Origin: a virus
Taxonomy: Duplodnaviria; Heunggongvirae; Uroviricota; Caudoviricetes
Virus record (IMG/VR): IMGVR_UViG_2541047938_000004
DNA length: 9,579 nucleotides
Strand: one strand, 5' to 3'
The position numbers and the translations under genes were made by a program. Numbering within the stretch: the first letter of the stretch is position 1; every line of letters starts with the position of its first letter. Of the stretch, positions 1,553 to 9,579 are shown one piece after another. The notes below the pieces were generated by a model. That model did no database searches, was not told the origin of the DNA, and was given only the letters and a program-made list of their open reading frames with translations.

Positions 1553-1741
1553 TCACGAGGACTGAAGTTTCTCGCAATTAAAATTTATCAGTTTTACTTT
1601 CTGCTCTCTGGAAACGCCTGCTTCTTTTTTACCTGAGAGCATTTTTTCGCATTCTGATTTCGTTAGTTTAGATTTTGAATATCTTGTCCAGTTAGTAGGA
1701 GTGCCACCTTCCTTTTCAATAGTGGCGGTAATTTTATACAT
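1553..1741 (-). CDS. ydaC: Small prophage protein YdaC-like (start ambiguous: 1741 with GGAGG SD, or 1753)
   Basis: ORF 1553..1813. The internal ATG at 1741 (MYKITATIEKEGG...) is preceded by GGAGGTG with 5-nt spacing; the alternative ATG at 1753 gives MEVFMYK.... Position between xis and ralR matches Rac ydaC. Function unknown. Confidence 0.65.
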   Translation of the reverse strand: MYKITATIEKEGGTPTNWTRYSKSKLTKSECEKMLSGKKEAGVSREQKVKLINFNCEKLQSS

Positions 1742-1928
1742 GAACACCTCCATTATTATTTCCAGTGGTTCGTTTATTTCATCGTTCGAGTGCTTCTTTT
1801 TCACTTCCACCATAACCGGTTCGGGATTCGCATCCGTTACACTTCGCTCGGTAATATCCTGAAATGGCTTTCACCGTTACTGATGGACAACCACAAAATG
1901 GACATGGTTTAACATTGTCATATCTCAT
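1734..1928 (-). pseudogene. ralR: ralR (lar) restriction-alleviation / DNase toxin frame, interrupted by an in-frame TGA at 1779-1781 (codon 50 of a 64-codon frame); intact N-terminal ORF is 1782..1928 (49 codons)
   Basis: Manual translation from ATG 1928 gives MRYDNVKPCPFCGCPSVTVKAISGYYRAKCNGCESRTGYGGSEKEALER, then TGA, then 14 further sense codons (NKRTTGNNNGGVHV) to TAA at 1734-1736. The total of 64 codons equals the length I recall for K-12 RalR, where this position is Trp (TGG) as I remember it. No ORF of 60 aa or more is listed here in the six-frame track, consistent with the interruption. Confidence 0.7.
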
Positions 1929-1983
1929 AATTTTTCTCATAAAAATATTTCAAGTTGGCGGTGCATTACACCGCCAGGCTGAA

Positions 1984-2793
1984 TTATTCCTCTGAATTAT
2001 CGATTACACTGTATTCCCCGGTTAATACAGAGGAATCTGCAGGATCGATTGTCAGTGGTTCCTTTTCATCCATTGATACTGCACGCTGGATCTCAATTGA
2101 TACGGGCAGATATTTGAACAGGCGACGAATAGCCGTTTTCTTTGCCATTTCTTCCCAGTGAGTTACCCACGGCCCGTTATTACCAGCTTTACTCTGGCTG
2201 CGCACCAGCTCAATCTGTTTGCGCGTCATAACTTCAAACTGAGTACCTCCGTCTTTCAGTCTTGCGACAGCATAGACGTGGGTAACAGGGGCATCTTCGT
2301 TTTCTCCTGGGCGGTGTATTAACTTTTCATCAAGGCCAAATTCGAAATTAAACTCGTCACCTTCACGGACAACACGGGCTGACAGGCTGGCGATTTGACC
2401 TGAACGGCGAGCCAGATCAATCATGCCGCGATAGCCAATGATTAGCTGAACGTTTTTTTTACCGCTCTTTTCGTTTTTATTACCAAAAGGCAGTAAATAT
2501 GCATGACCGAGGGCGCTACCGGGCTCAAGTCCGAGCTGTGAACACTGTACGATTGCACTGACAAAACTCATAGTGTCACAGTTTCCTAACGCCGGAACTT
2601 TACGAATTTCTGTGGTGGCGATACGGATCATACGTTCAGCCGTCATATGGCGTGGAAGAGCTGCTGCCAGTTGCTCTTTCATTGATGGCTGGTTAATAAA
2701 ACTAATCACGTCGTTATTTTTAATTGCTGCTGGTGCACGGTTTCCCTGAGTTTTTTGCAGATCGGCTTTTGCGATTGGTGGTTGCTTAGTCAT
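1984..2793 (-). CDS. recT: RecT single-strand annealing recombinase (269 aa)
   Basis: ORF 1984..2850; ATG at 2793 preceded by AAGGA. Product [41 protein letters not shown]... matches my memory of K-12 RecT. The start overlaps the recE stop by 8 nt. Confidence 0.95.
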
Positions 2794-7456: not shown

Positions 7457-7624
7457 CTTATCTCTCCCCTTAACGCCGGGTGGCGGAACTGAAACCTGCT
7501 GCACTGCAAAATCTGAACCCTGCCGTCATGTTCATACGCCTCGGGCTGGCTACTTAACCCCTGACCACTGCCTGGTAACTCGAAGTATTGCCCTGCGTTC
7601 TGTGGGGCGGGGTGGGTTGGTAGG

Positions 7625-7672
7625 TATATAATGTACTTTGTGTTCATTGATGTAAAGTACTTTAAGTACATT
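7625..7672 (-). promoter_or_regulatory. Candidate leftward (pL-like) promoter with overlapping repressor operator repeats upstream of ydaG
   Basis: Motif copies: ATGTACT 7631-7637, AAGTACT 7655-7661, inverted AAGTACA 7664-7670; AAAGTACTTT at 7654-7663 is a perfect 10-bp palindrome. Minus-strand hexamers TTTACA (plus 7651-7656) and CATTAT (plus 7628-7633) are separated by 17 bp. The same ATGTACT motif recurs in the racR/ydaS region. Confidence 0.45.
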
Positions 7673-7746
7673 TTGTGTGTAAAAAAATGAGATGGGATAA
7701 AGTGAAGCACAAACCCGGAGGGGGACGCTACCGGATTTATGCTGGT

Positions 7747-8166
7747 TTAAGAGGCTTTTTGTTTTTTCTTTCGTGCTAGCTCTTCGTAAATTGCATTGTA
7801 CTTCTGTTTTTTCTCCTCAAGAGTTTTTAAAAGTTCATCTGTCTCACTGTCAGGGAGCTCGTCCAGAAGGTCAATGATGATTTTTTGTCTTGGATTTAAC
7901 TCCTGATAGAAACGTACCTGTCCACTTTCTTCTGTATCCTCTCCCAAAAGATAGGTTGGTGTTGTTCCAATGAGTGTTGCTAATTCCCTTAATTTCTCTC
8001 GGCGAGGAATTGTTTCGCCATTAAACCATTTGCTAACCGCTTTTGGTGTTAATTTCATTCGACGGGCAATTTCTGCCTGCCTTCCATGTTGTTCATAACC
8101 AGCGTTTTCACAGGCTAGCGCAAGCCTACTGGCGAACTCTTTACGCGCTTTATCTTCATGAACCAT
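7747..8166 (-). CDS. racR: RacR prophage repressor (cI analogue), HTH XRE-family DNA-binding protein (139 aa in this sequence)
   Basis: ATG at 8166; the in-frame codon 19 codons upstream (8221-8223) is a stop, so the ORF cannot be longer. Helix-turn-helix signature GRQAEIARRMKLTPKAVSKWFNGETIP. Divergent from a Cro-like gene, as in lambdoid immunity regions. Confidence 0.85.
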   Translation of the reverse strand: MVHEDKARKEFASRLALACENAGYEQHGRQAEIARRMKLTPKAVSKWFNGETIPRREKLRELATLIGTTPTYLLGEDTEESGQVRFYQELNPRQKIIIDLLDELPDSETDELLKTLEEKKQKYNAIYEELARKKKQKAS

Positions 8167-8245
8167 AAGTTCAATGATATTCGCTCTTGAATGTACTGTC
8201 AGTTCTGTTATAGCATGTACTCAAAGTTCACATTGTGAGGGTGAT
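8167..8245. promoter_or_regulatory. Divergent racR / ydaS promoter-operator region (OR/PRM/PR analogue)
   Basis: Direct repeats ATGTACT at 8191-8197 and 8215-8221, 24 bp apart. Predicted racR promoter on the minus strand: CTGACA (plus 8197-8202), 17-bp spacer, TATCAT (plus 8174-8179), ending 7 nt before the racR ATG, implying a leaderless or near-leaderless mRNA like lambda cI from PRM. Predicted ydaS promoter on the plus strand: TTGAAT 8187-8192, 18-bp spacer, TAGCAT 8211-8216. Confidence 0.55.
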
Positions 8246-8500
8246 ATGAACCAGAAAACACTTGAAGATGTAATCAAAACTGTTCGCGTTTCTGTTGTGG
8301 CCGACGTTTGTGGTGTCAGCCAAAGAGCAATCTACAAATGGATGGATAACGGAAAATTGCCTCGCACAGAATATACCGGCGAAACAAATTACGCTGAAAA
8401 AATCGCTCATGCATCAAACGGATTATTTTCTGCTGATGTAATTTTAACTATTGGCAGAAATAAAACTACTACGAAAAAGCTGATGGGAGTTGATTCATGA
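8246..8500 (+). CDS. ydaS: YdaS Cro-like HTH regulator (84 aa from ATG 8246; the ORF also allows a 108-aa form from ATG 8174)
   Basis: ATG 8246 is preceded by GAGG (8237-8240) with 5-nt spacing. The upstream ATG 8174 lies inside the predicted racR -10 element, 8 nt from the divergent racR start, and has no SD. Product MNQKTLEDVIKTVRVSVVADVCGVSQRAIYKWMDNGKLP... has an HTH-like segment. Stop overlaps the ydaT start (ATGA). Confidence 0.8.
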   Translation: MNQKTLEDVIKTVRVSVVADVCGVSQRAIYKWMDNGKLPRTEYTGETNYAEKIAHASNGLFSADVILTIGRNKTTTKKLMGVDS

Positions 8501-8919
8501 AAATCAAGCATGAGCACATCGAGTCAGTGTTGTTAGCCCTGGCAGCCGAAAAAGGGCAGGCATGGGTAGCCAATGCCATTACTGAAGAATATCTGCGCCA
8601 GGGGGGCGGCGAATTGCCCCTGGTACCAGGCAAGGACTGGAATAATCAGCAGAATATCTATCACCGTTGGTTGAAAGGTGAAACGAAAACGCAAAGAGAA
8701 AAAATTCAGAAGCTGATCCCAGCAATTCTGGCAATCCTTCCGCGCGAGCTGCGTCACCGACTCTGCATCTTCGATACCCTGGAACGCCGTGCATTACTGG
8801 CGGCGCAGGAAGCGTTAAGTACGGCAATTGATGCGCATGATGATGCAGTCCAAGCCGTTTACCGGAAAGCGCATTTCAGCGGCGGCGGGTCTTCCGACGA
8901 TTCTGTCATTGTTCATTAA
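8497..8919 (+). CDS. ydaT: YdaT (140 aa), reported as a CII-like regulator that is toxic when derepressed
   Basis: ATG-initiated 140-codon ORF, MKIKHEHIESVLLALAAEKGQAWVANAITEEYLRQGGGELPLVPGKDWNNQQ..., coupled to ydaS by ATGA overlap. The 140-aa length equals K-12 YdaT. Confidence 0.85.
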   Translation: MKIKHEHIESVLLALAAEKGQAWVANAITEEYLRQGGGELPLVPGKDWNNQQNIYHRWLKGETKTQREKIQKLIPAILAILPRELRHRLCIFDTLERRALLAAQEALSTAIDAHDDAVQAVYRKAHFSGGGSSDDSVIVH

Positions 8920-8982
8920 GCAAAAGTTTCCATGCTGTTTGTGCTTATTCTAAGCCACCGGGCAGCATCATACGGGGCAATT

Positions 8983-9579
8983 ATGGCCGCATTACCATAC
9001 ATGCAACTGTACATAGCTGATTACCTGGCTGACACCATGCATTTGTCAGCAGAGGAGCATGGTGCGTATTTGTTGCTGATGTTCAATTACTGGCAAACAG
9101 GAAAGCCAATACCTAAAAACAGGCTGGCAAAAATTGCCCGTCTGACTAACGAGCGATGGGCTGATGTTGAACCATCCTTGCAGGAGTTTTTTTGCGATAA
9201 CGGCGAGGAATGGGTGCATCTTCGGATTGAGGAAGATCTGGCATCAGTCAGGGAAAAATTAACCAAAAAATCAGCCGCAGGAAAAGCATCTGTTCAGGCC
9301 AGAAGAAGCAGAAAGGAAGCAGATGTTCAAACAAAACAAGAGAGAAATTTAACAGGTGTTCAAACAGATGTTGAAGTGGTGTTTGAACATGATGTCAACA
9401 CAAAGGCAACTAATAAAGATACAGATAAAGATCTAAAAACAGATCCCCCCCTAAATCCCCCTCGGGGGAATCGAGGTGTCAAAAAGTTTGACCCTCTGGA
9501 TATTGCTTTGTCCGCTTTGTGCCAGGAGCAGACGTTACTAACATCTATCTGCATCAATCTGTGGGGAGCAGAACCGTGA
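8983..9579 (+). CDS. ydaU: YdaU-family putative replication initiator (lambda O-like position), 198 aa from ATG 8983; stop TGA is the last codon of the window
   Basis: ORF 8932..9579. ATG 8983 (MAALPYMQLYIADYLADTMHLSAEEHGAYLLLMFNYWQTGKPIPKNRLAKIARL...) is preceded by a GGGG run; ATG 8932 has no SD. The coding sequence contains an iteron-like repeat array and AT-rich block (separate feature), as lambda O contains ori. Functional assignment is by position and architecture; the name is from my recollection of Rac. Confidence 0.7.
   Translation: MAALPYMQLYIADYLADTMHLSAEEHGAYLLLMFNYWQTGKPIPKNRLAKIARLTNERWADVEPSLQEFFCDNGEEWVHLRIEEDLASVREKLTKKSAAGKASVQARRSRKEADVQTKQERNLTGVQTDVEVVFEHDVNTKATNKDTDKDLKTDPPLNPPRGNRGVKKFDPLDIALSALCQEQTLLTSICINLWGAEP
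9283..9476 (+). other. Candidate replication origin embedded in ydaU: direct repeats at 33-bp spacing, one inverted copy, AT-rich block, GC-rich dyad
   Basis: TGTTCA at 9291, 9324 and 9357 (exactly 33 bp apart). The 10-mer TGTTCAAACA occurs at 9324-9333 and 9357-9366, with its inverted copy TGTTTGAACA at 9380-9389. The block 9401-9444 is about 73 percent A+T. It is followed by the GC-rich dyad CCCCC-TC-GGGGG (9457-9468) within 9445-9476. Confidence 0.45.

Follow-up and report, generated by a model that had tools for sequence, protein, structure and literature searches.

Gene content and Rac context of the locus

The stretch of DNA analyzed here (hereafter the window) has a length of 9,579 nucleotides and stems from a record of a virus of the Caudoviricetes (IMG/VR record IMGVR_UViG_2541047938_000004). 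It shares 98.7% identity over 7.6 kb with positions 1412000–1419619 of the Escherichia coli K-12 MG1655 chromosome, which identifies it as Rac prophage, and the order of the Rac genes (intR, xisR, rcbA/ralA, ralR, recT, recE, racC, ydaE, kilR, sieB) is the same in both sequences. The identification of the gene under study as ralR of Rac, made in the original prediction from the nucleotide sequence, was borne out by its position between recT and rcbA (ydaC). recT (1984–2793, minus strand) is intact, is located upstream of ralR and fixes the Rac context, and none of the ten Rac genes mapped besides ralR is disrupted in the window. The similarity to Rac of K-12 ends at position 7622, and the remainder of the window (7623–9579) represents a different Rac variant. 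This part lies on the side towards immunity and replication, where matching genomes carry ydaU-like genes. The best full-length matches to the window were found in strains FORC_081, MB56, and NCTC10444.

The region that separates the stop codon of recT from the start codon of ralR contains a perfect 7-bp GC-rich hairpin (GGCGGTG-TAATG-CACCGCC; 1957–1975, minus strand), which is not directly followed by a T-run and was not called by the terminator scan. Scanning positions 1400–2100 for promoters and terminators revealed nothing that fits the mapped 5' end of RalA and nothing informative. A T-run upstream of ralR (1940–1945, minus strand) consists of five T in the window versus six in K-12. If translation began at the in-frame ATG at 1940, RalR would gain the residues MRKI, and this start is used in some database entries (e.g., the 68-aa protein P0028).

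A nonsense codon in ralR

When the minus strand of positions 1734–1928 is translated, the frame encodes MRYDNVKPCPFCGCPSVTVKAISGYYRAKCNGCESRTGYGGSEKEALER up to a first stop codon and NKRTTGNNNGGVHV up to a second one. As had been predicted, 49 sense codons from the ATG at 1928 are followed by TGA (1779–1781), 14 further sense codons, and TAA (1734–1736). The gene of K-12 MG1655 (b1348; NC_000913.3, 1413733–1413927; 195 nt) codes for 64 residues and has W at position 50, where the window has the stop; all other residues are the same. The prediction had named both this length and the Trp codon (TGG) for K-12 RalR and had asked for an alignment to b1348, and both the translation and the alignment show TGG instead of TGA in K-12. 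Exactly two nucleotides differ between the genes. One is the G-to-A exchange at nt 150 (position 1779 in the window), which by itself creates the stop at codon 50 and costs the toxin 15 residues, as had been proposed; all other alleles and orthologues that were compared have TGG at this codon. The other is a silent A-to-C exchange at nt 145 (1784, minus strand), which changes the codon of Arg49 from AGA to CGA and precedes the nonsense change by 5 nt. The premature UGA is followed by an A (UGA-A).

The toxin reading frame of the RalR/RalA locus is thus interrupted at codon 50 of 64. The truncated open reading frame (1779–1928, minus strand; 49 codons and TGA) retains the zinc-ribbon part and extends to the middle of the C-terminal helix. 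The former codons 51–64 and the TAA, located 3' of the new stop (1734–1778, minus strand), are unchanged from K-12. This segment also contains the Shine-Dalgarno sequence and start codon of rcbA as well as the last two bases of ralA (1734–1735).

The RalA antitoxin and its target

The gene of the RalA antitoxin sRNA, which was expected nearby in the original prediction, was located at positions 1557–1735 (plus strand) by Rfam family RF02694 (225.1 bits, gathering score 170, model positions 1–179 of 179). It is full length and has no differences from K-12, where b4714 maps to the same coordinates. As in the known RalR/RalA type I locus, ralA is encoded downstream of ralR on the opposite strand. 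The RalA target in the ralR mRNA, AAGTGAAAAAGAAGCA, covers codons 41–46 (1791–1806, minus strand), and the pairing segment of RalA, TGCTTCTTTTTTACCT, is found at 1619–1634 (plus strand) and starts 62 nt from the RalA 5' end. Both are identical to K-12 and represent the two copies of a direct repeat, one inside ralR and one inside rcbA/ralA; 14 of the 16 positions can pair, 11 of them contiguously. This arrangement agrees with the published interaction, in which 16 nt with 11 contiguous matches pair, the second copy lies about 105 nt past the ralR stop, and the pairing segment begins 62 nt from the 5' end of RalA (PMC4041452). The target ends 10 nt before the TGA, and the two single-base changes are situated 7 and 12 nt past its last base. 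An altered RalA pairing caused by these changes was ruled out, as they fall outside the target and both repeat copies are unchanged.

Position of the stop relative to rcbA

rcbA (ydaC, DUF1187; 1553–1741, minus strand) encodes 62 aa in the window and starts with an ATG at 1741 that is preceded by GGAGG. In K-12 the ATG of rcbA overlaps the end of ralR (ATGTATAA), and the predicted overlap of the ydaC start with the end of full-length ralR holds for the full-length frame. The premature stop lies 37 nt before the rcbA ATG, close to the roughly 40 nt originally given, and ribosomes translating ralR of the window would terminate at this distance from the rcbA start, with no overlap. With a GGAGG Shine-Dalgarno sequence of its own, rcbA would be translated from there instead of by ribosomes finishing ralR, so that the TGA probably has little effect on the coupling.

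Codon 63 of rcbA (1553–1555, minus strand) is TGA in the window and AGA in K-12, which results in 62 and 69 aa, respectively. The 62-aa form is common to all six non-K-12-type alleles examined, so that the extension in K-12 looks derived. The single-base difference behind it (1555) is located 2 nt before the mapped RalA 5' end.

Conserved features kept and lost by the truncated protein

The 49-aa product is still recognized by the models of its family. With NCBIfam model NF007260 (cut-off 113) it reached 126.9 bits as compared to 166 bits for the 64-aa form, and with Pfam PF14354 (cut-off 28.6) it reached 39.0 bits over residues 5–48 as compared to 53.5 bits over residues 5–54; profile positions 53–58 of PF14354 are missing from its match. 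The zinc ribbon CPFCG...C-x-x-C (Cys9, Cys12, Cys30, and Cys33) precedes the stop. Among 1.84 billion representative proteins, 1,690 relatives were found, and nearly all matches end at query residues 52–57. An alignment of 54 single-domain Lar-family representatives (33–62% identical) was used to assess conservation. Eight positions are invariant in all 54 sequences (Cys9, Pro10, Phe11, Cys12, Cys30, Cys33, Trp50, and Asn51), Arg53 is conserved in at least 90% of them, and no family member among the 54 ends before the W-N-x-R motif. In the window, Trp50 of this motif is the stop itself, and Asn51 and Arg53 lie beyond it.

An AlphaFold model of RalR, built on ten orthologues (mean pLDDT 71.8), consists of three strands, a single helix at residues 43–54, and a disordered tail (55–64). 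In this model, the stop falls in the middle of the helix, the only one predicted, and the truncation costs the protein two of the eight invariant residues. Residues 55–64 vary among the orthologues, and the loss of this variable tail is probably irrelevant. Replacements in residues 42–46, which fall on the same helix as Trp50, abolish the toxicity of RalR (Guo et al. 2014, PMC4041452), and both the non-specific DNase activity and the toxicity upon over-expression have been shown only for the 64-aa RalR of K-12 (PMC4041452). No catalytic residues of RalR are known, and no solved Lar-family structure was found by sequence search. A Foldseek search with the model retrieved solely generic zinc-ribbon matches with E-values of at least 0.2, from which no functional inference was drawn.

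Distribution of the allele

With a 91-nt query centered on the stop, the TGA haplotype was found as an exact match in 308 of 5,426 complete E. coli genomes, and the K-12 version in 1,108 genomes of the same set. About 1,770–1,890 of the complete E. coli genomes carry ralR of any kind. The carriers of the TGA allele include O26, O111, and O103 STEC, an O157:H7 strain, and isolates from poultry, pig, river water, and human clinical material. The 49-aa protein is encoded on at least 1,000 contigs in a large protein collection, and the RefSeq entry for the identical 150-nt CDS (WP_001443846.1) is named [quoted passage not shown] and bears no pseudogene flag. The allele thus is already catalogued, as a 49-aa RalR in RefSeq, and is widespread, while no mention of a truncated ralR was found in the searchable literature.

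The TGA allele also occurs in three GenBank phage records (ON470614.1, ON470616.1, and ON470590.1). These comprise approximately 38 kb each, entered GenBank as complete genomes of Escherichia phages (vB_EcoS-666R9 and relatives), and start with the block int-xis-rcbA-ralR(TGA)-recT-recE, as in the window. The allele thus resides in Rac-like elements larger than the 23-kb remnant in K-12.

Other lesions of ralR are present in public data as well. They include RalR-RcbA fusion proteins (P0040, P0043, and P0034 are among the lesion proteins) and a ralR that is broken after codon 54 in strain F2_81. The fusion junction of P0040 is located at the 16-nt direct repeat (1791–1806/1619–1634), as if the segment between its copies had been deleted, and a deletion of this kind would also take out most of ralA. 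The occurrence of independent lesions suggests a recurrent loss of the toxin.

Direction of change and origin

All seven other E. coli ralR alleles have TGG at codon 50, and five of these differ from K-12 at 10–15 mostly silent positions. The sequence R-W-N-x-R is also retained in RalR orthologues of Salmonella, Citrobacter, Enterobacter, and Serratia with identities as low as 50%. Since all diverged E. coli alleles and the orthologues have TGG, this comparison of sequences identifies TGG as the ancestral and TGA as the derived state. Purifying selection is apparent in the full-length alleles, with 11 silent changes and 1 replacement in allele L008, and 11 silent changes and 2 replacements in allele L005. 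The stop in the window thus is derived, removes conserved residues, and affects a gene under purifying selection, a combination expected of a pseudogene or a loss-of-function allele.

Across the complete genomes CGA and TGA are completely linked, and no CGA-TGG or AGA-TGA recombinants in the same 91-nt context were found in the 5,426 genomes. The combination CGA-TGG was found on a diverged O145:H28 allele. At an identity of at least 99%, calculated over whatever part aligned, 312 genomes match the window versus the 308 that carry the allele, and in approximately 310 of the 5,426 complete genomes the TGA haplotype occurs together with window-type Rac at this identity. Furthermore, the loci of O157:H7 and the bovine isolate E2865 share identical protein accessions for RecT, RcbA, and XisR. 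The simplest reading of these sequence data is that the allele likely has one origin on one Rac haplotype and later spread across lineages; the mutation would have arisen once on a haplotype marked by the silent CGA at codon 49 and would have been inherited with it.

A 49-aa RalR with an Asn5Asp exchange (P0003) was found on nine draft contigs. Neither of two plausible DNA versions of this Asn5Asp W50* protein was present at 100% identity in the 5,426 complete genomes. P0003 may represent a second origin of the nonsense mutation or a recombinant. Secondary decay after the first lesion was not seen. Approximately 306 genomes carry the identical 195-nt gene, as they match a query with the window allele of ralR everywhere except at one deliberately altered base, and the variants of the 49-aa form on record are rare and differ by one residue. 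The lack of secondary decay does not decide between the possible interpretations because the allele is too young.

Consequences for toxin function

Taken together, these comparisons make it probable that the derived nonsense allele encodes a non-toxic or strongly attenuated toxin that travels with one Rac haplotype. The main product is a 49-residue peptide that keeps the four-cysteine zinc ribbon but loses the second half of the helix together with Trp-Asn-x-Arg, and this peptide would be a non-toxic or strongly attenuated DNase. The RalA sRNA, its 16-nt target, and the neighboring Rac genes are all untouched. If the peptide indeed is non-toxic or attenuated, the locus would be a toxin-dead module with an orphaned antitoxin, RalA, and such a death of the toxin is what usually happens to chromosomal toxins that reside in cryptic prophages. 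Two observations speak against a loss of function: the zinc ribbon is complete in a 49-aa form that scores above the family cut-offs, and there is no further decay, which is expected of a young allele but also compatible with continued function.

One alternative is that the UGA is leaky and that tRNA-Trp decodes it at a low rate that depends on the conditions, so that the locus would express a dose-reduced, stress-tunable toxin. UGA is the leakiest stop codon of E. coli and is read mainly as Trp (PMC11126739, PMC10570021). Because the lost residue was Trp, readthrough would regenerate exactly the wild-type 64-aa RalR, and the 14 codons that follow, like the TAA, are intact and do not differ from K-12. 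The rate of readthrough is set by the competition of Trp-tRNA-Trp with release factor RF2; with a K-12 reporter it was approximately 2% at 37°C and approximately 4% at 25°C (PMC10570021). At premature TGA codons Trp is inserted almost always, and the rates are higher in the cold and during starvation (PMC11126739). By analogy with these reporters, some full-length RalR probably is still made.

However, the hallmarks of programmed recoding, a 3' RNA structure and a UGA that is conserved among diverged homologues, are both missing. The 66 nt around and after the stop have a minimum free energy of −3.8 kcal/mol (z-score +1.44), weaker than 195 of 200 shuffled sequences, and no stimulatory RNA structure is apparent 3' of the UGA. 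A selenocysteine signal or a structured readthrough signal was ruled out by the lack of a hairpin and of an Rfam hit, as in an Rfam search of the whole window only RalA reached the gathering score. Furthermore, the UGA is confined to one young haplotype, whereas all diverged alleles and the orthologues have TGG/Trp. The conservation of the downstream segment is uninformative in this regard because the rcbA start constrains the segment in any case, and ralA constrains the two bases at its end. Finally, the carriers are non-K-12 strains, and the Thr246 variant of RF2 is not known outside K-12. Termination at UGA, including UGAA, is efficient with the B-type RF2, which is more active and abolishes a readthrough product seen in K-12 (PMC5373646). 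A stress-tunable toxin produced by a leaky stop therefore seems unlikely, and it is quite doubtful that the UGA at Trp50 is a functional element through which translational fidelity (temperature, starvation, cAMP, or the RF2 allele) sets the dose of the toxin.

Alternatively, the 49-residue zinc-ribbon peptide could still be active, either in toxicity or restriction alleviation or in a new dominant-negative or DNA-binding role, in which case the truncation would be neutral or adaptive. The peptide keeps all four cysteines and the three predicted strands and scores over the NCBIfam equivalog and Pfam cut-offs, the allele is frequent, and part of the loss would be irrelevant given that residues 55–64 are variable and modelled as disordered. 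Yet Trp50 and Asn51, both among the eight positions that are invariant in the family, are gone, as is Arg53, no natural member in the alignment stops before W-N-x-R, and replacements at residues 42–46 of the same helix already abolish toxicity (PMC4041452), which renders an active peptide improbable.

A sequencing or assembly error, for which nothing speaks except the single-base difference from the reference strain, has a negligible probability and was ruled out by the 308 complete genomes from many laboratories and platforms, the three phage records, and the at least 1,000 contigs with the same base, and by the TGA always coming with the same linked silent change.

Comparison with known systems and implications

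With the loss of toxin function as preferred interpretation, the window can be compared with systems already described. It shares the locus, the gene order, RalA, and the 16-nt site with RalR/RalA of K-12 Rac (RalR = Lar, b1348; PMC4041452), but its toxin stops at codon 50 and that of K-12 at codon 65. Further differences are the one linked silent change, an RcbA of 62 rather than 69 aa, and a T-run upstream of ralR that is shorter by one T. In agreement with its membership in the Lar family (PF14354, TIGR03655), the window product has the CPFCG...C..C zinc ribbon and matches over the cut-off, but it lacks the C-terminal W-N-x-R that closes the domain in all 54 representatives. The hok genes of K-12 were inactivated by insertion sequences or rearrangements, whereas the lesion in the window is a single nonsense codon that is polymorphic within the species. 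These hok homologues of E. coli K-12 are inactivated chromosomal type I toxins (PMC4041452) and resemble the window locus in that the toxin is disabled, the antitoxin RNA gene remains, and the module resides in a cryptic or mobile element. The natural readthrough of UGA by tRNA-Trp in E. coli (PMC10570021, PMC11126739) likewise has its counterpart in the window, with UGA followed by A at a former Trp position, but the window shows no conserved context, no stimulatory structure, and no sign of selection for readthrough.

Approximately one in six of the ralR-carrying complete E. coli genomes, including O157:H7, O26, O111, and O103 strains, probably lacks a working RalR. Because RalR probably does not work in these strains, what has been found with RalR/RalA of K-12 regarding toxicity, fosfomycin tolerance, and restriction alleviation needs to be tried there before it is assumed to apply. 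Since its scores exceed the family cut-offs, annotation pipelines name the 49-aa product “RalR” and do not flag it as a pseudogene, so that surveys of toxin-antitoxin systems by gene content overlook the truncation. If the stop were functionally leaky after all, major STEC lineages would carry a stress-gated toxin gene in place of a constitutive one. The finding itself is an ordinary one in a known system, and its practical value is small but real: it calls for caution in toxin-antitoxin surveys and provides a natural mutant, as the TGG and TGA alleles form a natural control pair for the role of the W-N-x-R motif in the Lar family.
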